64,000 nt of DNA from Theionarchaea archaeon (GTDB lineage Archaea > Methanobacteriota_B > Thermococci > Methanofastidiosales > SZ-28-30), in contig JACVGT010000019.1 of the NCBI GenBank assembly GCA_018992685.1, positions 1 to 64,000 of the forward strand, in the 5' to 3' direction. Under the pieces are notes generated by a model that worked only from the letters and a program-made list of their open reading frames with translations, was not told the origin of the DNA and ran no database searches. This document shows, piece by piece, positions 2,744-60,080 of this stretch. Within the stretch, counting starts at the first letter, position 1. Every line of letters begins with the position of its first letter. A program made the position numbers and the translations under genes.

Positions 2744-2746
2744 GGG

Positions 2747-7572: not shown

Positions 7573-7573
7573 T

Positions 7574-7882
7574 TTATCCCTCCAGCATCCCTTTGATGAA
7601 GGGTTCAAAGGGTATGACGGCTTTTGGATCACGTGGAGATAACACAGCTACAATCAGGACCTGCTTCTCGTGGTCAATGTCTATGGTCAGGGTCCCCGGG
7701 GTCAGCGTAATGGAGTTTCCCAGAATAACCTGGGAGATTTCCCGCTTCAGTTCGGTGGGCACTTCCATGACCACCGGGTCGATGTTCCCTGTCACGCACT
7801 GAATGGAAACTGCAATCACTGATTTTATAATATTGTACACCAGGTCTATCACGTATGCTATCGCATAGATCGGGTTGAACAT
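7574..7882 (-). CDS. ehbA: MnhE-like subunit
   Basis: LGNSITLTPGTLTIDID. Confidence 0.9.
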   Translation of the reverse strand: MFNPIYAIAYVIDLVYNIIKSVIAVSIQCVTGNIDPVVMEVPTELKREISQVILGNSITLTPGTLTIDIDHEKQVLIVAVLSPRDPKAVIPFEPFIKGMLEG

Positions 7883-7931
7883 GGTTTTTCCCTTCCTATG
7901 AGTCGTTTTCTGTTTAAAGGTCAAAGAAACA

Positions 7932-33563: not shown

Positions 33564-35408
33564 TTAGTTTCTCCTCTTGAGATAGACAGTACTACCTCCA
33601 ATCACTGCAAGCACCACAAAGAGCGTTCCGAGACAGGGCCCGTCGCCTTCTGCTTCTTTCTCTTCGGCTGCTGGCGCTGGTGTCTCTTCTGGAGTTACGA
33701 CAGGTTTGATGTACACGATGGAGTCTGAGATTCCGTCAAGTTCGTCAAACCAGCCAGAAAAGTGGTCATTCCTGTAGGCTTCCACAGCTGCGGGAGCAAA
33801 CAGCGGAATGTAGGGCAGTTCGTTTGCCAGGTACTCCTGCAATCTGAAAGCTGCCTGGATCTTCTCACCACGAGGTCCACAGGTGACCAGATCATCAGCC
33901 AGTCTGTCAAACTCAGGGTTAGAATACTGAGGAATGTTGTACCCGTACTCCATGATCTGCGAAGAGTGGAAGAAGTCTCTCAGGTAGTCAGGATAGATTG
34001 TCAGAGACCACCCCAGAACGAACATGTCATAGTCACGCTCACCCATTGCCTTCTGGACAATTGTACCAAATGCAGTCGGTTGCGCTGTAACTGGCAGGCC
34101 AATCTGTTTCAACCACTCCTGAATCAGCATACCAGACATAGCACGCAGTGGGTCGTAATCAGCAGGCGGTGTCAAGATGACGAATGGTTTGATGTACTCT
34201 CCTTTGTACTTCATACCTTCTCCAGGAACAACGACTCCTTCTTCAACAGTGGGCTCCACATCCCAAGAGTAGTTGCCAGTTTGCTTGAGAATATTCACAG
34301 CTTCAGGGACCCTTTCTGTCATGGGCTGACCGTACCCCCACTTCTTGACCTCAGTGTTGTACCACTGACGGTTGCCTGGAGGCACGACAGAGTAGAGAGC
34401 TTCACCATAGTTCTGCAACACTCTCTCCTGGATGAAATCTCTGTCCACAAGAGTCGCTACAGCCTGCCTGAAAGCCACATCACTGAAGGGCTCTCGTGCA
34501 CAGTTAAATGCCATGTAACGCATTCCGTTCTCAGGGTTGTTGGTTACCGTGACATTGGGATCTGCCAGAAGGTCTGACACATATCCGGGCTGAATTGCCC
34601 ACCATATGTAGTCAATCTCACCCTTTTTCAATCCCAAAATAGCAGCGTCTGTAGTGTCATAAATCCTATACACAATATAGTCAAAGTAAGGACCGAGAAC
34701 CAACTGGGTCCCATCGTCATATACATGGGTGCGACCGGTGTCAAAGTAGTTAGGATTCTTCTTGCTCTTGACATAGGAACCTCTCTGCCATTCCATGAAG
34801 ATAAGAGGCCCACAGCTCAGAATCTCATCAGGTTCTACAGGTTGGTACTCCTGCACAGCCTTGGTGGGATTCTCTGCAGCCCTAAACTCAGCGAGCTTGG
34901 GTTCCCAGATGTGACTGGGGATTGGCAAGCTCATGAGAGTCCCTTCAATGAAGGTTACTCTACATTCTGAGAGCACGAAGTGCAAGGTATAGTCATCGAG
35001 AGCTTCCACCGTCTCCACAAATTCCCAGCTAGACAGGTAACGGCCAATCTGGAATTCCTTGACCATGTTTCCAAACAGTGCATAGTCATGAGCAGTCAGT
35101 GGTTTACCATCAGACCAGTAGACGTCATCTCTGAGCTTGACTGTGTAATCAAGTATGTCAGAGGAAACCTCTGGAACTTCAAGAGCCACATTGGGGACGA
35201 TCTTGAAGTCAATTGGTCTGTAAGTCACTAGTCCTTCATAGAAATAGGTCAAAACGTGCCAGTCCCATACATCCTGCGCTTGGAAAGGATTCATGGTCTT
35301 GGGCTCATCTTGCATTCCGACATTGAAAGTCACTCCACCCTGCGAATGTACCGGTACCATGCTTGCTACCAAAATAGCCACAACAGCGACTATAAAAAGT
35401 CTTTTCAT
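33564..35408 (-). CDS. oppA: Family 5 SBP (canonical domain order) with CLGT-TM-basic C-terminus
   Basis: Signal peptide; LRDDVYWSDGKPLTA.D, FRQAVATLVDR; ends GPCLGTLFVVLAVIGGSTVYLKRRN. Confidence 0.93.
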   Translation of the reverse strand: MKRLFIVAVVAILVASMVPVHSQGGVTFNVGMQDEPKTMNPFQAQDVWDWHVLTYFYEGLVTYRPIDFKIVPNVALEVPEVSSDILDYTVKLRDDVYWSDGKPLTAHDYALFGNMVKEFQIGRYLSSWEFVETVEALDDYTLHFVLSECRVTFIEGTLMSLPIPSHIWEPKLAEFRAAENPTKAVQEYQPVEPDEILSCGPLIFMEWQRGSYVKSKKNPNYFDTGRTHVYDDGTQLVLGPYFDYIVYRIYDTTDAAILGLKKGEIDYIWWAIQPGYVSDLLADPNVTVTNNPENGMRYMAFNCAREPFSDVAFRQAVATLVDRDFIQERVLQNYGEALYSVVPPGNRQWYNTEVKKWGYGQPMTERVPEAVNILKQTGNYSWDVEPTVEEGVVVPGEGMKYKGEYIKPFVILTPPADYDPLRAMSGMLIQEWLKQIGLPVTAQPTAFGTIVQKAMGERDYDMFVLGWSLTIYPDYLRDFFHSSQIMEYGYNIPQYSNPEFDRLADDLVTCGPRGEKIQAAFRLQEYLANELPYIPLFAPAAVEAYRNDHFSGWFDELDGISDSIVYIKPVVTPEETPAPAAEEKEAEGDGPCLGTLFVVLAVIGGSTVYLKRRN

Positions 35409-35771: not shown

Positions 35772-35921
35772 CTAAACCAGAAGCGAGAATATCACAGCCA
35801 ACACAAACAGAAAGACCAATACCAGAACGTACGGGAGAAAAATCTGCCAAAGAGCAATAGTAAAGGCCAGGACATCTTTCTTATCGGCCTTGAATTCCAG
35901 GTTGTTTTCCATGTCTTCCAT
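35772..35921 (-). CDS. 49-aa single-TM protein closing the second opp operon (below ORF-track cutoff)
   Basis: MEDMENNLEFKADKKDVLAFTIALWQIFLPYVLVLVFLFVLAVIFSLLV*; AGGTG SD overlapping the upstream stop. Confidence 0.7.
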   Translation of the reverse strand: MEDMENNLEFKADKKDVLAFTIALWQIFLPYVLVLVFLFVLAVIFSLLV

Positions 35922-35930
35922 TCCATACAC

Positions 35931-37391
35931 CTATTCTCCGTGTGAGTAAAGAGATAAAAAGGTTTCTTCTGCTGATTGTGAAAGGCGAGAAAAGTCTTTC
36001 GCAATTTCAGGAGATACCATACTACATAGCTTCAAGACCAGGACCAGCACAATGAATCCTCCAACATAGAAGAACACATCATGTGAGAAGACAGTGGGCA
36101 CATTTCCCCTGAGCAGAATGACCAATATAATCAGTCTCAATATGTTCCAGGCTGAGATCAATCCAAATCCCACGAAAGAGAGCAATACCTTCTTCTTAAG
36201 GGATATGGTGGTTGCAAAAACCACACCCAGAAAAACCGCTATGAAGAAGAGAGAAAGACAGGATTTCTCTATGGAACAGCCCTCCAGAAAGACGAAGTCA
36301 CTCCCTGCAACGTACGCGGTATAAAACCCAAACAGATCAAGAATCGCTTTTGTGACCAGAGCAACTGCCTTCCTGAACAGAAAATAGTCTGAAATATAGT
36401 AGATGATCACAGAGATAATGGTGGCTTTGACGAGAAATGCACTGAGCTCACTGGAGATGAAGAACGAATACAATTTCTCCAGCACGTTCTCCTTCCGGGG
36501 GTATTCCCGGGTCATCAGTTCGTCCAGGAATATGGGGAGCAGGAGGATGAGAACCATAATGATTGACCAGAAGGGGATGATCACGTTACTGGGTTCACGA
36601 ATATCACTGTACTGTGCCCTCTTGTCCAGGTTCACCTGAAATATCTCCCTCGTGGCCATACCAGTGATGAAGTAGGTGTTCTCTTCTCCAGCGGCAATCG
36701 CGCGGGGAAGACTGTCAGGAGCGTAGTACCATGAGGACGTCGTTTTACCCCTGGCATTAATGTGGAACACCTTCCTTGAGGTTACTCCAGTCACAATAAT
36801 TTCACCATTCTTGTATTCAATGTCTCCTGCAAAAGGAGCGGGTGACTCAAGAAAGTCCAGGATTTCTCCTGAATCGGGATTATACCGATAAATGATGGAA
36901 TTAGGGTATATGTTGGCAAAGAGATCCGGGTACTCTTCAAGCCCAAACACGTCCAGGATCCACAGGGCCTCTCCGTCCCAGGCCAGTCCGTATGGAGTGC
37001 TGTAAGGAGTCACATATGATCCTTTGACAGTTCCATCGATCGAAACCTTGTAGATGGTCCTTCTTGCATAATCAGCTACCCAGAAGTTCTCCCCATCAAA
37101 GGTGAGTCCAGCTGTCTCAAAACAGGGCACACTGATGGTCCGAATGACCTGGCTGGTTTTCAGATCAAACTCCAGGATTGCCTTGTCAAGACCAGACGAT
37201 ATCCAGAGGGAGCCATCCATGAAGTAAAGCCCATTGGTAGTGTAGGTGGGGCGCTGGTAGATTTCATCATTCTTGTATCTGTTGGGGATGTATTTTTCTC
37301 CTTTCCACTCCTGGTACTCACTATTGACGTAGAGAACAAATAAGAAAAAGAAGAAAACAACCGCAACCAATTTCTTGTTGTCGCTTTTCAT
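35931..37391 (-). CDS. Beta-propeller + archaeosortase/exosortase-family fusion protein
   Basis: GL.(W/F)DG..LW blades; C-terminal multi-TM domain with Cys (EKSCLS), Arg (WNILR) and His (SHDV) in exosortase order. Confidence 0.75.
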   Translation of the reverse strand: MKSDNKKLVAVVFFFFLFVLYVNSEYQEWKGEKYIPNRYKNDEIYQRPTYTTNGLYFMDGSLWISSGLDKAILEFDLKTSQVIRTISVPCFETAGLTFDGENFWVADYARRTIYKVSIDGTVKGSYVTPYSTPYGLAWDGEALWILDVFGLEEYPDLFANIYPNSIIYRYNPDSGEILDFLESPAPFAGDIEYKNGEIIVTGVTSRKVFHINARGKTTSSWYYAPDSLPRAIAAGEENTYFITGMATREIFQVNLDKRAQYSDIREPSNVIIPFWSIIMVLILLLPIFLDELMTREYPRKENVLEKLYSFFISSELSAFLVKATIISVIIYYISDYFLFRKAVALVTKAILDLFGFYTAYVAGSDFVFLEGCSIEKSCLSLFFIAVFLGVVFATTISLKKKVLLSFVGFGLISAWNILRLIILVILLRGNVPTVFSHDVFFYVGGFIVLVLVLKLCSMVSPEIAKDFSRLSQSAEETFLSLYSHGE

Positions 37392-37392: not shown

Positions 37393-38361
37393 CTACATCA
37401 GAGGGTAGTGGCATGCCACGAAATGGCCATCTCCCATATCACGCAGCTGAGGGATTTCTGTGGCGCAGTTTTCTTTTGCATATCGACATCGGGGATGGAA
37501 CCGGCATCCCTGAGGAGGATTGGCTGGTGTCGGCACATCACCCGTGAGAATGATCCTCTTCCTCTTCTTTCGGGGATCGGCTATGGGTGCTGCCGAAAGG
37601 AGTGCCTCAGTATAGGGATGGTACATCTTCTCGAAGATCTGTTCTTCTGTACCCATCTCGACAATGACACCCACGTACATCACAGCCACTCTATCACTGA
37701 TGTGTCTGACGATGCTCAGATCGTGAGTAATGAACATCATAGTTAGCCCTTCCTCTTTCTGGATGTCAGACAGCAGATTCAAGATCTTTGACTGAACAGA
37801 CACATCCAGGGCAGATGTTGGTTCGTCTGCCACGATCAGCCTTGGCTTGAGCGCAATGGCTCGGGCTATGCCAATTCGCTGCCTCTGTCCTCCAGAAAAT
37901 TCATGAGGGTAACGGTATATGTGAAAGGGCGCCAACCCAACTTCATTCATGAGCCGCAGAACAACTTTCTTCTTCTCTCCTGATTTCAATTCCCCATGGA
38001 TTTCGAAGGGCTCTCCAATAATGTCATAGACAGTCATCCTGGGATCCAGTGATGAGTAGGGATCTTGGTATATCATCTGAGCTTCTTTCTTGAATTCCTT
38101 CAGTTCCCGGGATCCCAACTTACTAACATCTCTTCCTTCAAAGAGGATTTCTCCTGCTGTTGGTTCGATGAGCCTCAGGACAGTCTTTCCCAGCGTGGTC
38201 TTTCCACATCCAGACTCACCCACAATGCCCAGGATTTCCTTGGGGAAGACATCAAAACTCACATTATCCACTGCTCTGATATCTCCCACCTTTCGCCCAA
38301 AGAATCCCGCAGTTATGGGAAAGTACTTCTCCAGATTCCTAACCTGCATTAGCGGCTTCAT
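37393..38361 (-). CDS. oppF: Oligopeptide ABC ATPase
   Basis: [24 protein letters not shown]. Confidence 0.95.
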
Positions 38362-39338
38362 AACTTGGTCCCCTCCCTTTTGTGCCAGCACTCAACATAG
38401 TGATCGCCAATCCACTCTCCGTTTGGCTGTTCCTTTTCACAAACCTCTGTTGCAAAGTCACACCGAGGATGGAACCGGCATCCAGATGGAGGATAGATTA
38501 GATTGGGGACAACACCCTTGATAACACCCAATTTCTGTTTCTTCTCTGTCACCTTGGGTATCGCCTCATGAAGTGCGATAGTATAGGGGTGAAGTGGGGC
38601 ATGAAAGACAATGTCAACTTCTCCATACTCAACCAGCCGCCCAGCGTACATCACTCCCACATGATCAGACATCTCGGCAATGACACCAAGGTTATGCGTG
38701 ATGAGCAAGACTGTTGTGCCTAGCTCTCTCTTGAGGTTGTTTATCATGTCCAAAACCTGTGCCTGAACTGTCACGTCGAGATTTGTCGTGGGCTCGTCTG
38801 CTACCAGCATTTTGGGATTACATGAGAGAGCCATTGCAATCATGACCCGCTGCTTCATTCCTCCACTAAACTGATGTGGAAAGTCATCAACACGGGCATC
38901 AGGGTCGGGGATACCCACGAGATCTAACATTTCAATTGCTTTCTGTCTAGCTTCTTTTTTCCCAAGACCCTGGTGAAGTTCAATCACTTCTCTCAATTGA
39001 TTGTCCACCGTATATACGGGGTTAAGTGCACTCTGAGGATCCTGGAATATCATTGAAATGTCATTCCCTCTGATTTGCCTCATGTCGCTCTCAGAAAGAG
39101 CCAGGAGGTTCACACCTTCAAAGAGAATCTCTCCATCAATAATCTTCCCCGGAGGATCGGGAACAAGTCTGAGGACAGACAGGGCAGTGACAGTCTTTCC
39201 ACAACCAGATTCACCGACCAGCCCTAAGGTCTCTCCCTGCTCAATGTGAATATCGATTCCTTCCAACGCTCTTACGATGCCATCCTCTGTATAAAAGTAC
39301 GTTCTCAGTCCTTTAATTTCCAGTAGATTATCAGCCAA
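38358..39338 (-). CDS. oppD: Oligopeptide ABC ATPase
   Basis: [16 protein letters not shown]. Confidence 0.95.
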
Positions 39339-39342
39339 AATA

Positions 39343-40269
39343 TCACCTTTTCAGTCGAGGATCGAGTGAATCTCTGAGTCCATCACCCAGCAAATTGAAT
39401 CCCAAAACAGCAATGAAAATCATGATACCGGGCAGTACGGTAATCCACCAGGCTGACCTCATGACATCTCGTCCTTCAGCGCAAATTCGTCCCCATGAGG
39501 GAATCACAGGGTTCCCGAACCCCAGGAATGCAACACCTGCCTCTGTCAGAATTGCTGCAGCCATTCCAAACGTTGCTGCCACGATCACAGGTGCAATTGC
39601 ATTGGGGAGCATGTGCCTCCAGATGATACGAAAGTTGGATGCCCCGAGTCCCCGTGCTGCTTCTGTGAACTGCCTCTCCCTGAGAGACAAGATTTCGCTC
39701 CGGATTAATCGGGCATATCCTGTCCAGTTGATGAAAGCAATGGCCAACCCGATCATGATCAGACCGCCTTCAGGATACAAAGTCACGAGGATGACGACTA
39801 TTGGGATAAAGGGCAGTGCCAGGAAAACATCAACAATTCTCATCAGAAGAATGTCCAGTACTCCTCCATAGTACGCAGAGATGGCTCCATACAATGTACC
39901 GACTATTCCACCGATGCCAACAGCAACAATCCCCACCAGAAGGGATCTTTCTGCACCATACAGCAGGCGAGAGTACAGACACCTTCCAAGAGCGTCAGTG
40001 CCAAGTGGAAATTCAGGGTTTTCACCCGGTGCCAGGTAACTGTTCATCAGCGAAACAGTATTAGGGTCATTTGGTGCTATTTCTGGAGCAAAAATCGCCA
40101 TTAATACAACTACCAGGAATACGCCAAATCCTACAATACCAGCTTTGTTTCTGATGAAGCGCCGGAGGGTTGTCATGAGCATTCCTGCACTTCGTTCTGC
40201 CTCACGCAACTGCTGCTCCAGCTCCTTGTCCATTTCAGGTATCTCAGTCGTTTTCTTCTTTTCTGCCAT
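39343..40269 (-). CDS. oppC: Oligopeptide ABC permease
   Basis: LGTDALGR, EAARGLGA. Confidence 0.95.
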   Translation of the reverse strand: MAEKKKTTEIPEMDKELEQQLREAERSAGMLMTTLRRFIRNKAGIVGFGVFLVVVLMAIFAPEIAPNDPNTVSLMNSYLAPGENPEFPLGTDALGRCLYSRLLYGAERSLLVGIVAVGIGGIVGTLYGAISAYYGGVLDILLMRIVDVFLALPFIPIVVILVTLYPEGGLIMIGLAIAFINWTGYARLIRSEILSLRERQFTEAARGLGASNFRIIWRHMLPNAIAPVIVAATFGMAAAILTEAGVAFLGFGNPVIPSWGRICAEGRDVMRSAWWITVLPGIMIFIAVLGFNLLGDGLRDSLDPRLKR

Positions 40270-40284
40270 GAAATCACCTTTAGA

Positions 40285-41268
40285 CTAAAACTCCACTCTT
40301 GGATCAAGCCATTTGTAGGAAATGTCAATCAAGACATTAGCCACTAGAATAAGAGTTCCAAGTACCACGGTAATCCCTACAATGACGAAATAGTCCCTGT
40401 GCTGAATTGCATACACAAAGTACTTCCCCAGGCCGGGCCATGAAAACACTGTCTCAGTAATAGGTGCTCCTCCCAGGGTAAGTGCAATCTGCATCCCTGT
40501 CACAGTTATCACTGGAAGCATTGCGTTTCTCAGTGCATGCTTGTAAATCACTATTCGTTCCTTGAGCCCCTTGGCCCTTGCTGTCATGATATAGTCTTCC
40601 CGCAGGACATTGAGCATTGAGGATCGGACCAACCGCGCATTGTATGCAGTCGATGCCAGACCCAGAGTCAATGTGGGCAGAGCCAGATGTTTCAGGTAAT
40701 CAAAGTAGTACGAAAAGTCATGGGGAATATCTTTTCCCAGAAACACCGTAGAATGGGCACCCCCACTGGGAAGCCATCCCAGTATCAGGGCAAATATGAA
40801 AATGTTCATCAACCCCAGGAAGAATATGGGGAACGAAACGCCCAGTAACGCCGCTGTCATGACCAGATTATCCGTCTTTGAATATTGTCTGACTGCAGAT
40901 ACAATTCCTGCTGGGATAGCAACACCTATCGAAAAGACAACGGCAAGCAGCTGGTATGATAGGGTGTTTACCACTCTGGCCCCGATTTCTTCGGAGACAT
41001 CTCTTCCAGATAGAAATGAAGATCCAAGATTAAAGGTTGCAAACTGTTTGAGCCAGTAAAAGTACTGGATATACCAAGGTTTATCCAGGCCGTAAATCGA
41101 TTTTATGTGTGCCACGTATGCAGGATCAGTGTCGGGCTGTAGTGCCAACATGAGATCAACAGCATCCCCTGGCATCAAGTACATTAGCATGAACACTATG
41201 AAAGAGATTCCCATGAGCATGGGAATAATCAGGATCACTCTTTTCAGGATATATTCTCTCATTCCCAT
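40285..41268 (-). CDS. oppB: Oligopeptide ABC permease
   Basis: PGD, GLDKP, DYIMTARAKG. Confidence 0.95.
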   Translation of the reverse strand: MGMREYILKRVILIIPMLMGISFIVFMLMYLMPGDAVDLMLALQPDTDPAYVAHIKSIYGLDKPWYIQYFYWLKQFATFNLGSSFLSGRDVSEEIGARVVNTLSYQLLAVVFSIGVAIPAGIVSAVRQYSKTDNLVMTAALLGVSFPIFFLGLMNIFIFALILGWLPSGGAHSTVFLGKDIPHDFSYYFDYLKHLALPTLTLGLASTAYNARLVRSSMLNVLREDYIMTARAKGLKERIVIYKHALRNAMLPVITVTGMQIALTLGGAPITETVFSWPGLGKYFVYAIQHRDYFVIVGITVVLGTLILVANVLIDISYKWLDPRVEF

Positions 41269-41348
41269 ATCGCACATCCTCCTTTGTTTTGTTTAGAGCA
41301 AGTCTCCTCATGTCGGGGCTGTTCTTTCTTGTCCTCAGTCATTTCAAC

Positions 41349-41384
41349 TCTCCCTCTTCAAAAAAGGGAAAAAGAGGGAAAAAA
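41349..41384 (-). terminator. Hairpin/U-rich element between SBP gene and oppB
   Basis: CCCTCTT...AAGAGGG inverted repeat with T runs on the minus strand. Confidence 0.5.
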
Positions 41385-41394
41385 TTTTGTTCTT

Positions 41395-43314
41395 CTAGTC
41401 TTTCTTCTTTACCATGTACCCAATGGCAAGTCCGACTATCAGGGCAACTATTCCAATTACAATCAGTGTCGTGGTGGACGTACCACCAGCTCCAGCTTCT
41501 CCGCCTTCTACCGTTACCTGTTTCTCAATGATGTAGTAGCGGTATCCTGCCGTGTCCATCAATTCTCGTGCCTTGGCCAGGTCATACGGGTCTGGTGCAA
41601 TGTTGGTGTTGAAGGCCCATGAGGGAACAGCAACAGGGTTCCGTCCGGGTACACCGTAGCCACCCAACAGGTTGTCCACAATTCCCTGTCTGTCAATACA
41701 GGAGGAAATGGCCTGTCTCACGTACTTGTTGGCCAGGTATGGGTTGCGGCAGTTGAAGTGCAGGTGCTGGTAGCCGAACTGCTCTGAAGTCCACAACTTG
41801 ATGCCGGGAGTAGCTTCGAGATCCTCACCAATGGCTGTCAAGTTGTAGTAGGTGTCCATCATGTCGATTTCGCCAGTTTCCAGGGCAACACGGGCTGCCT
41901 CTCTCTCGGGTATCAATTTCAGCACAAAGAAGTCGCATCCTGCTTCTGGGAGACCATACTTTGAACCCCAGTAGTTGGGATTCTTCTTCAACTTCCAGTA
42001 CTGGTCAGCTTCCCACGAGTCAAAGATGAAGGGTCCAGAACCAATGACGGTTTCTCCCCTGTTGACGTCAGACTCCATCCACTTGGTAGCAGCTTCTGCT
42101 CCTGTTATAGGAATATCACCATAGAGGTGCTTGGGCAGAATGTTGGTGTCACAGTATCTGAGCCAGGCAGCGTGGGGCATTCCGACATACACTCTCAGTG
42201 TGTACTTGTCAACGATTTCTGATCCACCATAGACATCTCTGAATGTTCCATATCCCTGGAAGGCAGTATCTGGGCTGACACAGGCATCAAAGGACCACTT
42301 GATATCTTCGCTTGTCATTTCCACACCATCGTGGAACATGATGCCTTCTCTGATCTTAATGTCGAAGTATTCTGGGAAGACTACAGGTTCAGCGAGCTTG
42401 GAACTGACATTACACTTGTTGACATCAGGGGCCATAGCCTCAATTGAAGCATCGTCCAGCATGCTGGGGGCAAACACAATAGTAGGTCCTTCTGTTGTAG
42501 AATCTGCCAGCAAGGGTGACATGTTCAGGTTATCGTCGTTCTGCCACAGTGTCTGGAAAATCTGCTGGTTGCAGTAGTATCCATACACTGAGTTCCATCT
42601 CCAGACCAGCATTCCCTCAACAGCTGCAGGTGTACCATAGACAATGGTGTCTTTTCCAGGAATTGACCAGGACGCAGCATCATAGTTCTGTGTCCACAGC
42701 AATCCACTGAATCCTTCAAAGGTGTCTATTGAGGCCCACATGTTGAGTGGGATGTACACCACACAGTACGGCTGTTCATCTGCAACAATCTCCTGGAATC
42801 TCCACAGGTATTCCTTTCTCTTTGCCTGATCAATTTCGACTCGTGCTTTAGCCAGCATCTCGTCAGCTTCCGGGCAGTACCAGAATGTCACGTTGTTACC
42901 TATGGGGGTCATTGCAGAAGAGTGGAATATGTCAAAGGGATCAGGGTCTACGCCCACTGACCAGCCGAACGAAGAAATGTCGAATCCATCTTCAGAATAG
43001 GATTTTCCGTAGTAGTTGTTGAACTCCCTGTTGATCAGGTCTCCGAACTCCAGCAACTTGAAGTCAGCCTGAATGCCGATCTTGGGCATCTCAAGGTTGA
43101 CAGCCTGGGTGTACTGCTCTCTGACCTTGTTCCCGATAGGAGCAATCTGCGTAATCGAAAAGAACGGTGGGTACTTGGAATAATCCTCAGTAAAGGGAAC
43201 CTTCGTGATCTCCTGTTCCTGAGCAATCGCAGTAGTTCCGAATAAAGAAAGTACCAAAGAAGTCAAGAGAACAATCGACAGCACCATTGAGACTTTTCTT
43301 GTTTTTACATTCAT
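41395..43314 (-). CDS. oppA: Family 5 SBP paralog 1 (circularly permuted), operon-linked
   Basis: Signal peptide; FHDGVEMTSED, GSGPF, VRQAIS..IDR; plain C-terminal TM + KKKD. Confidence 0.9.
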   Translation of the reverse strand: MNVKTRKVSMVLSIVLLTSLVLSLFGTTAIAQEQEITKVPFTEDYSKYPPFFSITQIAPIGNKVREQYTQAVNLEMPKIGIQADFKLLEFGDLINREFNNYYGKSYSEDGFDISSFGWSVGVDPDPFDIFHSSAMTPIGNNVTFWYCPEADEMLAKARVEIDQAKRKEYLWRFQEIVADEQPYCVVYIPLNMWASIDTFEGFSGLLWTQNYDAASWSIPGKDTIVYGTPAAVEGMLVWRWNSVYGYYCNQQIFQTLWQNDDNLNMSPLLADSTTEGPTIVFAPSMLDDASIEAMAPDVNKCNVSSKLAEPVVFPEYFDIKIREGIMFHDGVEMTSEDIKWSFDACVSPDTAFQGYGTFRDVYGGSEIVDKYTLRVYVGMPHAAWLRYCDTNILPKHLYGDIPITGAEAATKWMESDVNRGETVIGSGPFIFDSWEADQYWKLKKNPNYWGSKYGLPEAGCDFFVLKLIPEREAARVALETGEIDMMDTYYNLTAIGEDLEATPGIKLWTSEQFGYQHLHFNCRNPYLANKYVRQAISSCIDRQGIVDNLLGGYGVPGRNPVAVPSWAFNTNIAPDPYDLAKARELMDTAGYRYYIIEKQVTVEGGEAGAGGTSTTTLIVIGIVALIVGLAIGYMVKKKD

Positions 43315-43363
43315 ATCTTTTCTACCTCCTTTGATCGGTATTGTATCCACGTACAGGGAAAGG

Positions 43364-46837: not shown

Positions 46838-47224
46838 ATGAATATCAAAAGACTTGGTCCTCTAGAACGAACAATAATGGAAGTCTTCTGGGAGAAGAAA
46901 AAAGCTGATGCACGGGAGGTCTATTCAGAACTCAACAGAGAAAAACAAATCGCCTACACCACCATCAATACTACTCTCACCCGTCTTCACAAGAAGAAAT
47001 TGCTCAACAGAAAGCTGGTGAAGGGAAGAGGAGGATACCGTTATGTGTACACCATTGCCAAGTCAAAACCAAAATACATTGATCAGGTCATACGCTCTAC
47101 CATAGATGATCTCCTGATGCGGTTCGGAAATCGAACCATAAGTTACTTCTCAGAAAGTCTCAACCTGAATGAAGAGGATGTGGAGAAGCTAAGAGTTCGT
47201 CTGAAGGAGTTGTCTCATGAATGA
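46838..47224 (+). CDS. BlaI/MecI/CopY-family repressor
   Basis: LGPLERTIMEVFW, AYTTINTTLTRL.KK.LL.R. Confidence 0.92.
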   Translation: MNIKRLGPLERTIMEVFWEKKKADAREVYSELNREKQIAYTTINTTLTRLHKKKLLNRKLVKGRGGYRYVYTIAKSKPKYIDQVIRSTIDDLLMRFGNRTISYFSESLNLNEEDVEKLRVRLKELSHE

Positions 47225-48554
47225 GTGGCAGAATTTTGCGCTTGCGATTGTATTGATTGTGGTGGTACAATTCACCAACGAGGGCATCATTGCGCTACTG
47301 AAAGTGAGGAATGCCACCACTCGATTCCGTATTAGGCTCATTTCTCTTGTCTCCTGTTTTTTCGTGTTTTTGATTGTTCCGTTCAAGATCGTGGAACTCA
47401 CCATCCTGTCGGGAGAGATTTTTGTCGGCAGCAGTGAATCTTCCCAGATTGATGGCTGGGTGGCCAGATCTGCCACAATGACGTCGACCTATTCTGGGTT
47501 TGCACGGGCCAGCGTTGTTCTCCTCTTGATAGCTGTGTGCTGCTTTGTTGTCATGGTTCTGTTCGGCAAGCACATAACTGGTAGAGTATTTGGATGTGAG
47601 CCAGCAACAGATTCGAGGCTTCTGACCATTGTGAATCAAGTCTCCTCTGAACTGGGACTGTCCATCAAGCAGGTGATGGTGTGCAGAAAGAAATGTGACG
47701 CCTTTGTATATGGATACCCTCCTTTCCTAGCAGTGGGAAGAGACCTCCTCACTATGCTGGATGACAGTGAGCTCCGGATAGTCATCAGGCATGAATTGTA
47801 CCATGTCAAAGGTAAGGACACACTCCTGAAGCCATTTCTTGCCGCTCTGTGCATTGTCTTCTTATACAACCCCATGAGCTGGTTCCTGTATAGAAAAGTG
47901 TTTAATGACAGGGAGTGCTGCGCTGATCAGGCTTCTATCACCTGTTCTCAGGACACCAGGACATTTCTTTCCCTGCTGCTGAAATTCCACAGCCTTGCAA
48001 GTGGCATGCCGCACACGTTTGCTGTTCACTGGACGGGAGCCACTAACAGAATTGACTCACTCCTCTTTGCAGAAAAGACCCGGAAGATCCCTGTCTTCTT
48101 GTGTTTGTTCTTTACGGTCTCATCGCTTTTTGTGGGAGGTACTCAGCTCTTTGAGAACCAATTTGTGGAAATCAACAGCTCTATTCCGTTTGATTCAGAA
48201 ACATATGGTCCGGAAGCTGATTTCTCAGACTATTTCTATGATATTCCTGTAGCAGAATGGTACAACAGAAAACGATCGGAAAATGAAGTGAGTATCCCAC
48301 TACAGGAAAGAGACCTCAGAAAACTCCTGTCTGCAGACGAACTTGCCAAGGGAGAAATCACCATAAGAATGGCCACGCTTCCCTTGGGAAGGAGACCTCA
48401 GTTGTTTGGCAGAAACGATATTGTGGATGGCAACTGTAACCTCATCATTGAAATAGAAGAGGGCAAACTATTCGTTTCCATAAGACAGAACAATGGACCT
48501 GGAACGTCCCAGAAGGAAGCCGTTCTCAGTGGAGGACCTGCCACAGCAATGTAG
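47217..48554 (+). CDS. M56-family (BlaR1-like) membrane zinc metalloprotease
   Basis: TM helices, HELYH..GKD, YNP..W, RECCAD; no recognisable penicillin-binding sensor domain. Confidence 0.88.
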   Translation: MNEWQNFALAIVLIVVVQFTNEGIIALLKVRNATTRFRIRLISLVSCFFVFLIVPFKIVELTILSGEIFVGSSESSQIDGWVARSATMTSTYSGFARASVVLLLIAVCCFVVMVLFGKHITGRVFGCEPATDSRLLTIVNQVSSELGLSIKQVMVCRKKCDAFVYGYPPFLAVGRDLLTMLDDSELRIVIRHELYHVKGKDTLLKPFLAALCIVFLYNPMSWFLYRKVFNDRECCADQASITCSQDTRTFLSLLLKFHSLASGMPHTFAVHWTGATNRIDSLLFAEKTRKIPVFLCLFFTVSSLFVGGTQLFENQFVEINSSIPFDSETYGPEADFSDYFYDIPVAEWYNRKRSENEVSIPLQERDLRKLLSADELAKGEITIRMATLPLGRRPQLFGRNDIVDGNCNLIIEIEEGKLFVSIRQNNGPGTSQKEAVLSGGPATAM

Positions 48555-50465: not shown

Positions 50466-51253
50466 TTCAGCAGACCATGTTTATTCGAAAAGAATCCTTT
50501 CTTCACTCTTTGGATCCCAGAACAAAGCTATTCTTATCCATTGGCCTGTTTCTCGTGGGTGTCCTGTTCACTGATTACAGAGTGCTGATGGCCCTCTTTG
50601 CAGGCGAGGTTATCATTCTCAGAGTGGCAGCCAGAATTCCTTTTTCGAAGTTATTCCCGTACCTGAAACTGATTCTTCCTCTTGTGGTTATGGCACTGCT
50701 GATATGGCCCCTCTTCCAGAGAACGGGGACAGTTCTGGTATCCTACTGGAAGGTTATCATCACGAAGGAGGGAATCCAGATGGGAATTGCCATGTCCTTG
50801 AGACTGCTGTCTTTGATCGTGGCTACGTATTTGCTCCTCATGACCACCGAGCAGAGAGATCTGGTTCTTGCTCTCGTTAAATCCGGATTGCGGTATGATT
50901 TCGGGTTAATGTTGGCCATTGCTCTGAGCAAGGTTCCTGCTCTGGCAGGGATTGCCTTGACCATCATGGATGCGCAGAAGGCACGAGGGCTCGAACTCGA
51001 AAAGGGAAATATCGTTGAAAAAGTGAGAAAGTACATACCTATTCTGATTCCATTGATTATTTCAGCTATAAGGCTGGCTGAAGCGTTGTCCATTGCAATT
51101 GATTCTCGAGCATTTGGGAGAGGGAGGCGCACCTACCTGAGAGAGCTTCACTTCACGATGAAAGATGCGCTGGTCACTGGTATGGCTGTGGTGGTGATTT
51201 CAGTATGTATGGGAATGCGTGCTGCAGGATATGGTGTTATGGAATTGCCGTGA
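50462..51253 (+). CDS. ecfT: ECF transporter T component
   Basis: LDPRTKL, AQKARG, DSRAF. Confidence 0.93.
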   Translation: MIQQTMFIRKESFLHSLDPRTKLFLSIGLFLVGVLFTDYRVLMALFAGEVIILRVAARIPFSKLFPYLKLILPLVVMALLIWPLFQRTGTVLVSYWKVIITKEGIQMGIAMSLRLLSLIVATYLLLMTTEQRDLVLALVKSGLRYDFGLMLAIALSKVPALAGIALTIMDAQKARGLELEKGNIVEKVRKYIPILIPLIISAIRLAEALSIAIDSRAFGRGRRTYLRELHFTMKDALVTGMAVVVISVCMGMRAAGYGVMELP

Positions 51254-52059
51254 TGGCTGTCGGAACCGTATTGATGTCGGCTGCACTGGAAAACCCGGTG
51301 GAGGGGTGGGCTGTCCTCATGGAAACCAATGATTTCCCTGGAGGGTACACTGATCTCCCTCTGGGCTTCGTGGATGTTGAACGAATGGAGACCCTGCTCC
51401 AGTACCACGGGTGGCAGAAATCACACATGCTACTAAGAAGAGATACTATTACGACGCAAGCAGTGAAGGAGGGTATTGCATACCTGCAGAAAGCAGATCA
51501 GAATGACATTGCTTTGTTCTACATTTGCTCTCACGGAGGATATCTGAGGCATGATCTCCAATGGAACAGTCTCATGCCTCCGCTCTGGGAGCGTGTTACC
51601 AGTGAAAAGAGAGTATTGATTATAGATTCCTGCTATGCAGGTTCCTTTCTGCCGGAAAGCGAGAGACCATACATCGGGATTGGCTCAGTTTCGGCTGACG
51701 AGCTTGGGTGGGCAGGCCTGCCAGAAGAGAACCTGCCTATTACCGGGTTCGTGTTCACCTACTACTTCTGCCAGTCCACCCTGGGAGTATCAGTTGAAGA
51801 GGGATTTGGAAGGGCCAGTCCCCAGGTACAGCAGTACATGCAGGATGTGGTCTATCCGGCTTTCAAGGAAGTCTATCCTCCCGAGCACTACAATGTCTAT
51901 GATCCTCATCCTGTGTTGAAGGATTCGTATCCAGGTGAGCTCTCCCTGTGGGTTGATGAGGGTGGAGTTTCTCTCTCTCAGGTTCTGGCTGTCCTGATGC
52001 TTCTCCTCCTGGGAATCATCCTTGCCCTGGATAGAAAAGGAATCTGTTCATGTGACTAG
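51250..52059 (+). CDS. Caspase/metacaspase-like (clan CD) peptidase with C-terminal TM
   Basis: FYICSHG and IIDSCYAG His-Cys dyad; start position uncertain. Confidence 0.8.
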   Translation: MMAVGTVLMSAALENPVEGWAVLMETNDFPGGYTDLPLGFVDVERMETLLQYHGWQKSHMLLRRDTITTQAVKEGIAYLQKADQNDIALFYICSHGGYLRHDLQWNSLMPPLWERVTSEKRVLIIDSCYAGSFLPESERPYIGIGSVSADELGWAGLPEENLPITGFVFTYYFCQSTLGVSVEEGFGRASPQVQQYMQDVVYPAFKEVYPPEHYNVYDPHPVLKDSYPGELSLWVDEGGVSLSQVLAVLMLLLLGIILALDRKGICSCD

Positions 52060-55799: not shown

Positions 55800-55903
55800 C
55801 TCCAATACCGTCTGCTGGTTGAAGATGTCGGCCTCCTTGGATCGGTATTGCAGACACTGAACCCGATCAACATCACCTCCAGCAGATGGTATACAGAATG
55901 GAG
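55800..55903 (+). ncRNA. Structured 5' leader (long hairpin exposing CCUCCUU)
   Basis: 55805-55818 pairs with 55879-55892 (14 bp, 1 GU); inner GATGT/ACATC and GATCGG/CCGATC. Confidence 0.65.
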
Positions 55904-55921
55904 ACCAAAGGAGGAAGAAAA

Positions 55922-57811
55922 ATGAACACAAGAAAGATCTCAGTCGTATTGTCTGCCGTGTTACTTGCTTCTTTAACTCTATCCCTATTCGGAACCAGTA
56001 CTGTTGCACAAGAACAGCAGTGGAAAAAAGTGCCAACTACTGAAGACTATTCCAATTACCCCGCATTCTTTTCGATCACGCAGATTGCCCCCATTGGGAA
56101 CAAGGTTAGGGAACAGTATACACAGGCAGCCAACCTCGAAATGAGAAAAATCGGCATAGGGGCTGACTTCAGAATGCTGGAGTTCGGAGACCTGATCAAC
56201 AGGGAATTCAACAACTACTATGGCAGCACATTTGCTGAAGATGGATTCGACATTTCTTCATTCGGCTGGTCAGTGGGAGTAGACCCCGATCCCTTTGACA
56301 GTTTCCACTCTTCTGCAATGACCCCCATAGGTAACAACATTACATTCTGGTACTGCCCGGAAGCTGATGAGATGCTCTCTCTCGCACGAGTTGAACTTGA
56401 CCAGCAAGCCAGAAAGGAATACCTGTGGAGATTCCAGGAGATTGTTGCGGATGAAAAGCCCTACTGTGTGGTGTATGTGCCACTGCTCATCTGGGCCTCC
56501 ACAGATCAACTGGAAGGCTTTAATTCACTGATGTGGCAGCAGAACTTTGATGCTGTAACCTGGTCAATTCCAGGAAAAGACACCGTTGTCTATGGTACAC
56601 CCGCAGCTGTCGAGGGTATGCTGCCCTGGAGATGGAACTCAGTGTATGGACACTATCTTCACAACCAGATATTTGAGACATTGTGGACCGTTGCTCCAGA
56701 CCTCACCATTGAATCAAGAATTGCTGACTCTGCAACAGAAGGACCTTCAATCGTATTTGCCCCTAGCACTCTTGATGATGCTTCAATTGAGGCTCTCGGA
56801 CCTGATGTCAAGAAGTGTGTGGTGAACACCAAACTCGCAGGTCCTGTTGTGTTCCCCGAATACTACGACATCAAAATCAAAGAAGGCATCATGTTCCACG
56901 ATGGCGTGGAGATGACCAGTGAAGATGTCAAGTGGTCAATGGATGCCTGTGTCAGCGCAGACACCGCCTTCCAGGGATGGGGTACCTTCAGAGATGTATA
57001 TTCCAGCTCAGAAATCCTTGACAAGTACACACTGAGAGTGTATGTCGGGATGCCCCACGCAGCATGGGTACAGTATTGTAATCCATATGTATTGCCCAAG
57101 CATATCTATGGTGGCATTCCTATAACAGGAGCAGAAGCTGCCACCAGCTGGATGGAATCTGACATCAACAGAGGAGACACTGTCATTGGTTCAGGACCCT
57201 TCATGTTTGATTCCTGGGAAGCTGACCAGTTCTGGAAGATGAAGAAGACACCTGACTACTGGGGTTCTGCATATGGATATCTTGAAGCAGGATGCGACTT
57301 CCTGATACTGAAATTGATACCCGAGAGAGAGGCAGCCCGTGTTGCCCTGGAAACTGGAGAAATTGACATCATGTGCTGCTACTACCAGCTCGGAGCAATT
57401 GCTCAGGACCTGGAAGCTACCCCCGGCCTAGTGTTGTGGACCACAGAAGACTTCGGCTACCAGCACCTGCACTTCAACTGCCGCAACCCGTACCTTGCCA
57501 ACAAGTACGTGAGACAGGCCATTTCCTCCTGTATTGACAGACAGGGAATTGTGGACAAGTTGCTGGGTGGTTATGGTGTGCCTGGTGCCAACCCTGTTGC
57601 CGTTCCCTCGTGGGCCTTCAACACCAACATTGCACCAGACCCATACGATCTGGACAAGGCACGAGAGTTGATGGACACGGCAGGATATCGCTACTACGTC
57701 CTAGAAAAGACGGTGAGCACAGGCGGAGAAGAGGAAGCTGGAGGCGGATTCTGTCTGGGAACCCTGTTTATAGCCCTTATGAAGACTAATCATCTATTCA
57801 GGAGAGAGTGA
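55922..57811 (+). CDS. oppA: Family 5 SBP paralog 2 (circularly permuted, orphan, degenerate anchor)
   Basis: Close paralog of 41395-43314; ends CLGTLFIALMKTNHLFRRE. Confidence 0.9.
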   Translation: MNTRKISVVLSAVLLASLTLSLFGTSTVAQEQQWKKVPTTEDYSNYPAFFSITQIAPIGNKVREQYTQAANLEMRKIGIGADFRMLEFGDLINREFNNYYGSTFAEDGFDISSFGWSVGVDPDPFDSFHSSAMTPIGNNITFWYCPEADEMLSLARVELDQQARKEYLWRFQEIVADEKPYCVVYVPLLIWASTDQLEGFNSLMWQQNFDAVTWSIPGKDTVVYGTPAAVEGMLPWRWNSVYGHYLHNQIFETLWTVAPDLTIESRIADSATEGPSIVFAPSTLDDASIEALGPDVKKCVVNTKLAGPVVFPEYYDIKIKEGIMFHDGVEMTSEDVKWSMDACVSADTAFQGWGTFRDVYSSSEILDKYTLRVYVGMPHAAWVQYCNPYVLPKHIYGGIPITGAEAATSWMESDINRGDTVIGSGPFMFDSWEADQFWKMKKTPDYWGSAYGYLEAGCDFLILKLIPEREAARVALETGEIDIMCCYYQLGAIAQDLEATPGLVLWTTEDFGYQHLHFNCRNPYLANKYVRQAISSCIDRQGIVDKLLGGYGVPGANPVAVPSWAFNTNIAPDPYDLDKARELMDTAGYRYYVLEKTVSTGGEEEAGGGFCLGTLFIALMKTNHLFRRE

Positions 57812-58178: not shown

Positions 58179-60080
58179 ATGAATACGAAAAAGATTTCGG
58201 CAATCCTGTCAGTTGTGCTCGTTGCTTCTCTTGTGATATCCCTTTTCGGGACAACTACTGTCGCTCAAGAGGAAACCATGACACAAGTACCGTTCACCGA
58301 GGACTATTCCAAGTACCAGCCATTCTTTTCGATTACGCAGATTGCTCCCATCGGGAACAAGGTCAGAGAACAGTACACCCAGGCCGTCAACCTTGATATG
58401 CCAAAGATCGGCATTAAGGCTGACTTCAAGCTGCTGGAGTTTGGAGACCTGATCAACAGGGAGTTCAACAACTACTATGGTAGTACATTCGCTGAAGACG
58501 GATTCGACATCTCTTCATTCGGCTGGTCGGTGGGTGTAGACCCCGATCCCTTTGACATATTCCACTCTTCTGCAATGACCCCCATAGGTAACAATGTGAC
58601 GTTCTGGTACTGCCCTGAGTCTGACGAGATGCTGGCCAAGGCACGAGTCGAATCAAATCAGGAAACCAGAAAGGAATACCTGTGGAGATGGCAGGAAATT
58701 ATTGCAGATGAACAGCCCTACTGTGTGGTGTATGTGCCACTGCTCATCTGGGGCTCAACAGATCAGCTGGAAGGCTTTGACCCACTGTTGTGGCTGCAGA
58801 ACTATTCTCTGGAAACATGGGAAATTCCAGGAAAGGATACCATTGTCTATGGATCACCTGCGGCTGTCGAGGGTATGCTGCCCTGGAGATGGAACTCAGT
58901 GTATGGTCGTTATCTGCATTCACAGATCTTTGAGAGTCTGTGGCTTGTGGATAACAACCTGGTGATTTCACCCCGACTTGCAGAATCAGCAACAGCAGGG
59001 CCTACCATTGTGTTCGCCCCCAGCGCTATTGATGATGCTTCAATTGAGGCTCTGGCCCCTGATGTCAAAAAGTGCAAGGTGAATGACAAGCTCGCAGAGC
59101 CTGTCGTATTCCCCGAGTACTATGACCTCAAGATCAGGCAGGGCATCATGTTCCACGATGGCGTGGAGATGACCAGTGAAGATGTCAAGTGGTCAATGGA
59201 TGCTGTCATCAGTGCAGACACTGCCTTCCAGGGATGGGGTACCTTCAGAGACATATATGACAGCTCTGAGATTATTGACAAGTACACGGTAAGAGTATAT
59301 GTCGGAATGCCCCACGCAGCATGGGTTCTGTACTGCAACCCAACTGTACTGCCCAAGCATGTCTATGGTACTATCCCCATAACAGGAGCAGAAGCTGCCA
59401 CTAGCTGGATGGAGTCTGACATCAACAGGGGAGAGAACGTCATTGGTTCTGGACCCTTCATGTTTGATTCCTGGGAAGCTGACCAGTTCTGGAAGATGAA
59501 GAAGACACCCAACTACTGGGGTGTCAAGTATGGTGTTCCCGACCCACAATTCGAATACTTCCTCATCAAGCTGATACCCGAGAGAGAAGCTGCACGTGTC
59601 GCTCTGGAAACTGGAGAAATTGACATCATGGACACGTACTACCAGCTCGGAGCAATTGCTCAGGATCTGGAAGCTACTCCTGGGTTGAAGCTGTGGACCA
59701 CAGAAGACTTCGGCTACCAGCACCTGCACTTCAACTGCCGCAACCCGTACCTGGCCAACAAGTACGTGAGACAGGCCATTTCCCACTGTATTGACAGACA
59801 GGGAATTGTGGACAACCTGTTGGGTGGCTACGGTGTACCCGGTGCTAACCCTGTTGCCGTCCCGTCATGGGCCTTCAACACCAACATTGCACCAGATGCA
59901 TATGACCTGGTCAAGGCTCGGGAAATGATGGACAAGGCAGGATACCGCTACTTCATCGTTGAGAAAGCAGGCGCAGCTGGTGGAGAAGAGGAAGCCGGAG
60001 GCGGACTCTGTCTAGGAACCATGTTCATAGCCCTTATGGTCTTGGGCGGAAATCTGCTCTATCTCAAGAAGAAAGAGTAA
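58179..60080 (+). CDS. oppA: Family 5 SBP paralog 3 (circularly permuted, orphan) with CLGT-TM-basic tail
   Basis: Close paralog; ends GGGLCLGTMFIALMVLGGNLLYLKKKE. Confidence 0.9.
   Translation: MNTKKISAILSVVLVASLVISLFGTTTVAQEETMTQVPFTEDYSKYQPFFSITQIAPIGNKVREQYTQAVNLDMPKIGIKADFKLLEFGDLINREFNNYYGSTFAEDGFDISSFGWSVGVDPDPFDIFHSSAMTPIGNNVTFWYCPESDEMLAKARVESNQETRKEYLWRWQEIIADEQPYCVVYVPLLIWGSTDQLEGFDPLLWLQNYSLETWEIPGKDTIVYGSPAAVEGMLPWRWNSVYGRYLHSQIFESLWLVDNNLVISPRLAESATAGPTIVFAPSAIDDASIEALAPDVKKCKVNDKLAEPVVFPEYYDLKIRQGIMFHDGVEMTSEDVKWSMDAVISADTAFQGWGTFRDIYDSSEIIDKYTVRVYVGMPHAAWVLYCNPTVLPKHVYGTIPITGAEAATSWMESDINRGENVIGSGPFMFDSWEADQFWKMKKTPNYWGVKYGVPDPQFEYFLIKLIPEREAARVALETGEIDIMDTYYQLGAIAQDLEATPGLKLWTTEDFGYQHLHFNCRNPYLANKYVRQAISHCIDRQGIVDNLLGGYGVPGANPVAVPSWAFNTNIAPDAYDLVKAREMMDKAGYRYFIVEKAGAAGGEEEAGGGLCLGTMFIALMVLGGNLLYLKKKE

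Follow-up and report, generated by a model that had tools for sequence, protein, structure and literature searches.

A five-bladed propeller fused to an archaeosortase-family domain at the end of an oligopeptide transport operon in Theionarchaea

A contig of a Theionarchaea archaeon (JACVGT010000019.1, assembly GCA_018992685.1), whose first 64,000 nucleotides were analysed here as a whole (the window), carries a gene (35931..37391, minus strand) whose product joins a five-bladed beta-propeller to a domain of the exosortase/archaeosortase family. The gene abuts, in the same orientation, oppF, the last gene of an operon for an oligopeptide (Opp) importer of the ATP-binding cassette (ABC) type. 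Very probably, the encoded fusion is an active archaeosortase-family enzyme joined to a propeller that faces outward. As the best overall explanation we propose a fused archaeosortase that might trim and re-anchor the importer's binding proteins, with the motif CLGT as the likeliest signal, a proposal to which we give an even chance of being right; that the proteins with a CLGT tail are indeed substrates of the fusion is a tentative assignment, falling somewhat short of an even chance. Since the domain scores above the cut-off of the family signature TIGR04178 and the same architecture recurs in 11 further full-length proteins, the fusion is more than a chance assembly.

Archaeosortases are known mainly through the haloarchaeal ArtA, and most subfamilies have computed substrates only. 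The kind of enzyme described here is already known, some members of its family being labelled 'exosortase/archaeosortase family protein' (names from the Joint Genome Institute, JGI). New are the fusion to a propeller, the gene's constant position at an opp operon's end, the accompanying small membrane protein and a candidate sorting signal that lies outside all models; none of these is described in the literature that we searched, at listing level, on archaeosortases and exosortases with Theionarchaea, propellers or the signal names. The compact three-part module (importer operon, sortase with an outward domain, small membrane partner) beside an unmodelled candidate signal makes the enzyme-substrate question directly testable, and the case pits two published rules against each other, namely that sorting enzymes adjoin their targets and that Cys-containing signals go to CPBP proteases.

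The fusion gene and its operon

The fusion is encoded by one uninterrupted open reading frame (ORF), whose ATG (37391-37389) lies 1 nucleotide past the TAG of the gene for the OppF-type ATPase, as a preliminary description of this DNA had stated; the fusion of a propeller to an archaeosortase-family domain and its co-oriented position behind oppF are likewise borne out. The features of the gene and of the two neighbouring opp operons are as follows.

35931..37391 (-): propeller-archaeosortase fusion gene, single uninterrupted ORF of 486 residues (ORF and translation)
37320..37370 (-): transmembrane helix 1, residues 8-24, N-terminal membrane anchor (Kyte-Doolittle peak 1.99 at residues 8-26)
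36618..37277 (-): five-bladed beta-propeller, residues 39-258, predicted extracellular (AlphaFold2)
36522..36581 (-): transmembrane helix 2, residues 271-290, predicted to bring the chain back to the cytoplasm (hydropathy peak 2.80; model helix 271-294)
36015..36449 (-): archaeosortase core, residues 315-459, four transmembrane helices, with an amphipathic helix and a hairpin on the outer side; alignable to 17 standalone sortases
36258..36260 (-): codon of Cys378, predicted nucleophile (invariant in 12/12 and 21/21, see below; coordinates verified)
36135..36137 (-): codon of Arg419, within Asn416-x-x-Arg419 (invariant in 12/12 and 21/21; coordinates verified)
36081..36083 (-): codon of His437 (invariant in 12/12 and 21/21; coordinates verified)
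35772..35930 (-): small transmembrane ORF of 52 residues, GTG start immediately after the fusion's TAG; below the 70-residue ORF filter
37393..43350 (-): upstream opp operon, complete, OppF-type ATPase last (NCBIfam Opp/Dpp matches)
41395-43350 (-): binding protein of the fusion's own operon, Thr-rich linker and plain transmembrane tail, no CLGT
40285-41277 and 39343-40269 (-): permeases of the upstream opp operon (NCBIfam)
38358-39338 and 37393-38391 (-): ATPases of the upstream opp operon (NCBIfam)
33564-35408 down to 29659 (-): second opp operon, downstream, on the same strand as the fusion
33564..35408 (-): first gene of this next opp operon, CLGT-tailed Opp binding protein (CLGT encoded at 33624-33635; NCBIfam)

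The preliminary description had further claimed an N-terminal transmembrane segment, propeller blades with the motifs NGLYFMDG, AGLTFDG and YGLAWDG, and a C-terminal part of several transmembrane segments with Cys, N-x-x-R and His in exosortase order. All of this held: residues 8-24 are hydrophobic and fall within a modelled helix (3-29), the three motifs open blades 1-3, and Cys378, Asn416-x-x-Arg419 and His437 follow one another in the expected order.

The 11 other full-length homologues with the same architecture are 50-82% identical to the fusion. The only named record among them belongs to the Theionarchaea, a class of Methanobacteriota in the NCBI taxonomy; the closest named relative, P0003, is a protein from a Theionarchaea metagenome-assembled genome (81% identity), and its locus (L001) is syntenic with the window.

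The archaeosortase domain

Residues 373-458 of the fusion score 30.6 bits with the NCBIfam exosortase/archaeosortase signature TIGR04178, whose cut-off is 23. The orthologues at two further loci score 24.7 (L002) and, slightly below the cut-off, 22.4 (L003), and members of the fusion family lie between 22.4 and 33 bits, on both sides of the cut-off. A dedicated model would therefore improve the annotation of Theionarchaea, where members straddle the cut-off and one NCBI record reads 'hypothetical protein'. A phmmer search with residues 291-486 against 1.84 billion representative proteins gave 24 matches at expectation values (E) up to 0.001, only two of them below 1e-10; the others are standalone proteins of 93-209 residues with 22-34% identity, plus one protein of 487 residues. 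When 18 of the 24 (all except P0002 and five short fragments) were scanned with NCBIfam, 16 passed TIGR04178 and none reached the cut-off of a named Art or Xrt subfamily. The 487-residue protein, P0102, is very distant (22% identity in the sortase part) and has the same propeller-sortase architecture, with Ser at the position of the catalytic Cys and with N-x-x-R and His retained.

Evidence for catalysis comes from conservation. In all 12 full-length members, Cys378, Trp415, Asn416, Arg419 and His437 are invariant, and in an alignment of 21 sequences, made up of four fusion sortase domains and 17 standalone homologues (156-234 residues, 20-27% identity), Cys378, Arg419 and His437 are the sole invariant columns. 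The Haft preprint (10.1101/2023.06.07.544157) names a nearly perfectly conserved Cys, Arg and His as the suspected triad of exosortases and archaeosortases. The conservation of these three residues, on which the preliminary description had staked its proposal, is thus complete in both sets, and it argues for an active enzyme.

Several observations weigh against this reading. At E up to 10, Pfam PF09721 (Exosortase_EpsH) does not match the window protein, and two relatives stay below its cut-off of 25.7 (P0008 with 21.7 and P0012 with 16.8). The PF09721 model was built on forms with eight transmembrane segments. The fusion reaches none of the named Art and Xrt cut-offs (ArtA-ArtH, heimdall- and pace-archaeosortase, XrtA-XrtY), its best scores being 26.1 of 170 for XrtX, 25.2 of 160 for XrtY, 18.2 of 86 for XrtH and 9 of 130 for heimdallarchaeosortase. 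Hence the comparison with the exosortase and archaeosortase models came out divided: the general signature was passed, and Exosortase_EpsH and the named subfamilies failed. Moreover, Cys378 stands in the context KSCLSL, while most standalone homologues have C-T/S-G/A. The preliminary description had correctly read CLS in place of the usual CSG or CTG and had called activity uncertain on that account; the context is indeed atypical, but the invariance of Cys378, Arg419 and His437 answers this doubt in part.

The nearest known proteins are small unclassified members of the archaeosortase/exosortase family, whose closest named models are XrtX, XrtY, XrtH, ArtE and heimdallarchaeosortase. They resemble the fusion across the core (20-27% identity) in helix order and in Cys, N-x-x-R and His, but they are standalone proteins of 156-234 residues. 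With ArtA of Haloferax volcanii, which acts on PGF-CTERM proteins, the fusion has in common the TIGR04178 superfamily signature and the character of a membrane cysteine peptidase based on conserved Cys and Arg, and the substrates of ArtA carry a motif, a transmembrane helix and a basic cluster, like the CLGT tails described below. For ArtA, Cys173, Arg214 and Arg253 are given as critical residues in the review PMC9263693. The two differ in that the families listed for the window protein do not include the ArtA model (271 positions), that the fusion has a core of about 170 residues with four helices, preceded by an extracytoplasmic propeller and two extra transmembrane helices, that its gene lies in an opp operon, and that the candidate motif is CLGT rather than PGF.

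Membrane topology and structural comparison

Hydropathy gives six transmembrane segments, five of them in the C-terminal part. Clusters of Lys and Arg occur on the loops predicted to lie inside, at residues 1-7 (MKSDNKK, directly before the first transmembrane helix, with three Lys or Arg among seven residues), 291-314 (four Lys or Arg) and 398-401 (LKKK), and there is none on the outer loop 429-436. From hydropathy and the positive-inside rule, we infer that the N terminus lies inside and the propeller outside, and that Cys378, Arg419 and His437 are placed near the outer face of the membrane. In the predicted topology, Cys378 and His437 would stand at outer helix ends and Arg419 in the outer half of a helix, so that the catalytic residues would lie on the propeller's side, level with a motif that abuts the transmembrane helix of a substrate.

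The model of the sortase domain, built from the 21-sequence alignment, has a mean predicted local distance difference test score (pLDDT) of 84.3, with the core above 90, and a predicted template-modelling score (pTM) of 0.74. To our knowledge, no archaeosortase structure has been solved. In the Protein Data Bank (PDB) there was no sequence match to any sortase-like chain, and Foldseek with the domain model against the PDB gave a best E of 0.47 and template-modelling scores (TM-scores) of at most 0.26. In the ESM Atlas, the fusion scored 0.75 and the small ORF 0.82, both under the meaningful level.

We consider it very improbable that the sortase-like domain is catalytically dead and a mere membrane scaffold for the propeller. 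The atypical KSCLSL, set against C-T/S-G/A in most standalone homologues, and the Ser at the Cys position of the distant fusion P0102 would fit a loss of activity, but the invariance of Cys, Arg and His in 12 of 12 members at 50-82% identity points to selection on catalysis, and propeller-only paralogues keep both transmembrane anchors, which means that no sortase-like scaffold is needed. In a separate variant, to which the same low probability applies, the protein would be a feeding protease, supplying the Opp importer with cut peptides. The location of the gene within a peptide-uptake operon suits this variant; the predicted active site at the membrane face is, however, a poor position for soluble substrates.

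The propeller half

AlphaFold2 modelled the N-terminal half as 20 strands forming five four-stranded blades, with block means of pLDDT mostly between 79 and 94 and a low-confidence disordered loop at residues 151-163. In a Foldseek search of the PDB, ranks 1-4 were taken by the glutaminyl cyclases 3mbr, 2faw, 2iwa and 3nol (TM-score to target 0.69-0.76), with 3nok at ranks 6 and 8; these plant and bacterial enzymes are five-bladed propellers of equal size. In Pfam, Glu_cyclase_2 (PF05096) was borderline for the window protein (22.4 against a cut-off of 22.3) amid generic propeller families with similar scores; among relatives, it reached 28.3 in the propeller-only paralogue P0013 and 19.8, 18.5 and 18.3 in others.

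Such matches would be expected if the propeller were an active glutaminyl cyclase, in which case the protein would be bifunctional: on one and the same binding protein, it would convert the N-terminal Gln laid bare by signal peptidase to pyroglutamate and also process the C terminus. We regard this as improbable. In the account of PMC9436314, the active site of type I glutaminyl cyclase from papaya consists of F22, Q24, F67, E69, W83, W110, N155, W169 and K225, and activity is lost on mutating the Plasmodium equivalents of Phe22 and Gln24. A HMMER alignment via the Xanthomonas enzyme (3mbr) places Thr51 and Asn53 of the fusion at these two positions, the only two of the nine that could be aligned, and the position of Thr51 is variable within the fusion family. 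The PDB was queried with residues 36-270 and 40-130, and only the first blade aligned to 3mbr; with residues 40-130, generic WD40 and designed propellers dominate, and the Pfam matches are likewise scattered over generic propeller families. What 18 archaeal and 61 bacterial relatives share is the repeated blade motif (G-L-x-aromatic-D-G-x-x-L/F-W-x-x-D), not the pocket. Because the cyclase positions differ and the shared residues form a blade motif rather than a pocket, the propeller is read as a cyclase-like fold serving for binding. It further departs from the glutaminyl cyclases in its low identity to them (16-17%) and in being held between two transmembrane helices.

A Gln stands right after the signal-peptide cleavage site, as placed by eye, in all four Opp binding proteins of the window and in 20 of 25 CLGT homologues. 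This residue was tried as support for a cyclase and dropped, since Gln at this position is equally common in homologues of other lineages.

The closest relatives of the propeller in sequence come from bacteria, as secreted proteins with the propeller in front of a transglutaminase-like Cys enzyme, and 60 of 70 propeller-only matches carry PF01841. These proteins (about 540 residues; Aminicenantes, Bacteroidota, Acidobacteriota) share with the fusion the repeated blade motif and a partner that is a Cys-based enzyme acting on peptide bonds, but they are soluble and secreted, carry a signal peptide and have a transglutaminase-like core in place of a membrane sortase. Complete propeller-only paralogues with both transmembrane anchors are P0013, P0014, P0016, P0017, P0018 and one at locus L004. 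As propeller-only and standalone sortase proteins both exist, the fusion joins two modules that each occur alone.

The conserved neighbourhood

A scan of contigs, starting from 98 pattern matches, yielded five loci in three genomes (L001 to L005), which together with the window makes four genomes. The fusion gene abuts oppF in all four; at L003, the oppF part is a chimeric ORF that keeps only the C-terminal region of oppF. Directly behind the fusion, every one of the four genomes has a small transmembrane ORF of 52-83 residues, the counterparts of that in the window (L001 11462-11620, L002 11489-11740, L003 8019-8240) abutting or closely trailing the fusion gene. An alignment of the four has 19 invariant columns (D..AF.IALWQ.FLP..LV..F.F..A) after a variable charged N terminus. 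The small ORF matches no Pfam or NCBIfam model and has neither a signal peptide nor a basic C terminus. The conserved module is oppF, followed by the propeller-archaeosortase, followed by the small transmembrane protein.

Two further observations concern this arrangement. In the genome of L002, L005 9560-10887 is a decayed second copy, in which a C-terminal fragment of oppB is followed by a fusion-like stretch with 14 stop codons in a one-frame reading across the tblastn match. In another opp operon, at L003 3898-5364, a gene that overlaps oppF at its end codes for a protein of 488 residues (P0236), which matches no family and consists of an N-terminal transmembrane helix, an outer domain rich in beta structure and a transmembrane bundle at the C terminus; it may be a sign that anchored proteins with an outer domain are more widely placed behind oppF.

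CLGT tails on Opp binding proteins

Of the window's four Opp binding proteins, three (33564-35408, 55886-57811 and 58179-60080) end in a Gly-rich linker, the residues C-L-G-T, a hydrophobic helix and a cluster of Lys and Arg. Besides the first gene of the downstream opp operon, which lies 522 nucleotides behind the fusion gene and whose orthologues retain CLGT, the carriers are two orphan genes.

58179..60080 (+): orphan gene, CLGT-tailed Opp binding protein (CLGT encoded at 60009-60020)
55886..57811 (+): second orphan gene, CLGT-tailed Opp binding protein (CLGT encoded at 57752-57763; transmembrane part shortened)

C-L-G-T is invariant in 29 of 29 tails (three from the window, one from L001 and 25 database matches), and behind it come 15-19 hydrophobic residues and ends of the type KRRN, KKKE or RRRK, except that the helix of the 55886 protein is shortened. 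In that tail, window positions 57752..57811 show a 12-nucleotide in-frame deletion and diverged codons, which leave only about nine hydrophobic residues, perhaps too few for this copy still to cross the membrane. Among the 120 homologues listed for the 33564 protein, 23 carry CLGT, always exactly in this form, four have CGP tails, and the others have a plain transmembrane tail or none; the four named CLGT carriers among the listed homologues are all from Theionarchaea. A narrow search with the tail gave CLGT in two of four matches. Among 944 stop-to-stop segments of at least 60 residues from the window and the five loci, CLGT tails occur only on the three window proteins and the orthologue at L001. 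The CLGT carriers found are all PF00496 binding proteins, in a search that was seeded with such proteins.

The published attributes of tripartite C-terminal sorting signals are set out in section 5 of the Haft preprint (10.1101/2023.06.07.544157), and the CLGT tail agrees with those listed there: it stands at the C terminus, has a motif of at least three nearly invariant residues, a hydrophobic helix and a basic cluster, occurs several times in one genome on carriers with a leader peptide, and is replaced by other tails in homologues. The three carriers lie within a stretch of 27 kb in the window, and all have a hydrophobic N-terminal leader (judged by eye). No NCBIfam C-terminal model matches the CLGT tails at its cut-off, and the CGP-CTERM model TIGR04288 gave no match at E up to 10 on the three window tails and two database CLGT tails; on the CGP tails of homologues, it gave 26.1, 18.0 and 10.3 bits against a cut-off of 21.

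Identity between the two orphan proteins and the binding protein encoded in the operon of the fusion is 76%, and in the pair 58179 and 41395 this holds except for the tail, which is CLGT in the former and a Thr-rich plain transmembrane tail in the latter. In the Thr-rich tail, no invariant motif is found across four examples. The binding proteins form two classes that are 23-26% identical and circularly permuted, and the tail is the best-conserved segment common to both (12 of 22 residues identical).

With respect to the classical form, the proteins encoded at 58179, 55886 and 41395 appear circularly permuted when compared with the 33564 protein. Its residues 88-375 correspond in alignment to residues 315-579 of the 58179 protein, and its residues 433-557 to residues 74-203; NCBIfam matches the permuted proteins in two stretches.

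The proposed link between enzyme and substrate

The C-terminal signal made up of CLGT, transmembrane helix and basic cluster is the best substrate candidate, with a putative link to the enzyme. In the mechanism that we propose, the enzyme would be a membrane-embedded cysteine endopeptidase, possibly a transpeptidase, of the exosortase/archaeosortase superfamily in a minimal four-helix form, joined to a doubly anchored five-bladed propeller that faces outward. It would cut the C-terminal anchor of transmembrane helix and basic residues off the oligopeptide-binding proteins that work at the cell surface for the ABC importer encoded beside it, and, by analogy with ArtA, the cleaved proteins might stay held through another anchor. 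The propeller may dock the folded binding protein or its linker, and the most likely recognition signal would be the CLGT that abuts the transmembrane helix in three of the four binding proteins of the window.

Genomic position is consistent with such a link. Both in the window and at L001, the first full-length gene to follow the fusion and its small ORF encodes a CLGT protein, and longest contigs of equal length suggest the same pairing of fusion and CLGT protein on three more contigs (P0004/P0117, P0008/P0118 and P0009/P0120). The 76% identity of the two orphan CLGT proteins to the binding protein of the operon that carries the fusion also counts in favour of the link. The preliminary description had already looked to the CLGT tails for the substrates, and as far as the tails themselves are concerned this stood, for they are real and behave like a sorting signal; the connection to the fusion fared less well, in view of the genomes in which no CLGT protein lies nearby and of the other protease family to which Cys-containing signals are assigned.

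Four facts speak against CLGT as the signal of this enzyme. The binding protein of the fusion's own operon (41395-43350) lacks it. No CLGT protein occurs within the 16-21 kb examined at L002 and L003, which represent the most distant fusion genomes, and none was seen in the examined parts of L004 and L005. In the Haft preprint (10.1101/2023.06.07.544157), all four known Cys-containing signals, namely MYXO-, JDVT-, Synerg- and the archaeal CGP-CTERM, are assigned in silico to CPBP (PF02517) proteases and not to archaeosortases, the cut following lipidation of the Cys. One of these assignments, that of MrtX to MYXO-CTERM, is experimentally confirmed according to PMC11980579.

It is possible, though in our estimate rather unlikely, that the fusion is a genuine archaeosortase with other substrates, and that the Cys of CLGT is lipidated and the tail then cut by a CPBP-family archaeomyxosortase encoded elsewhere. 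The targets of the fusion would then be the Thr-rich tail with transmembrane helix in its own operon, the small transmembrane protein downstream, or proteins outside the window. Beyond the invariant Cys that all four signals predicted for PF02517 proteases share with CLGT, and the confirmed case of MrtX, such a division of labour gains from the CGP tails that stand at the same position on four of the 120 listed homologous binding proteins. It also gains from the association kept in every genome being that with oppF and the small ORF and not with a CLGT gene, and from the lack of a CLGT protein near the fusions of L002 and L003. On the other hand, the 64-kb window contains no PF02517 protein (20 unannotated ORFs scanned with Pfam and 64 with NCBIfam), the Thr-rich tail has no invariant motif in four examples, and the small ORF has no signal peptide or basic C terminus. 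The CLGT gene, moreover, adjoins the fusion in the window and at L001.

A known counterpart of that route is MrtA with CGP-CTERM in Thermococcales (Haft preprint 10.1101/2023.06.07.544157). CGP-CTERM is likewise a Cys-containing tail of motif, transmembrane helix and basic cluster, and it occupies the position of CLGT on homologous Opp binding proteins. MrtA differs from the fusion in being a CPBP protease of the glutamic type, unrelated to archaeosortases, and the tails differ in that TIGR04288 matches a CGP tail (26.1 bits) and no CLGT tail.

The fusion as a trimming and re-anchoring enzyme of the importer's binding proteins may also be stated in its most specific form, as a dedicated 'binding-protein sortase', which would be the first enzyme of the exosortase/archaeosortase type on a Cys-containing signal (CLGT-CTERM), with a propeller that captures the folded Opp binding protein and with the conserved membrane partner of 52 residues. 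In all these particulars together the idea is doubtful. If it were true, the cell could select, for any one ABC importer, the binding proteins to be re-anchored or set free, and the current rule that assigns Cys-containing C-terminal signals to CPBP proteases would be broken.

Other features of the window

The window is archaeal in content, as it encodes a thermosome, an archaeal DnaG and a hydrogenase cluster (NCBIfam); this cluster and further features are as follows.

625..7924 (-): thirteen-gene cluster resembling membrane-bound hydrogenases and Mrp antiporters (Ehb/Mbh-like), with EhbF-like, NuoB-, NuoD- and NuoH-like subunits
46838..48554 (+): BlaI/CopY-like repressor adjoining a membrane metalloprotease of the BlaR1/M56-M48 type
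51205..52059 (+): caspase-like membrane protein (Peptidase_C14, EACC1-associated type) next to an energy-coupling factor (ECF) transporter

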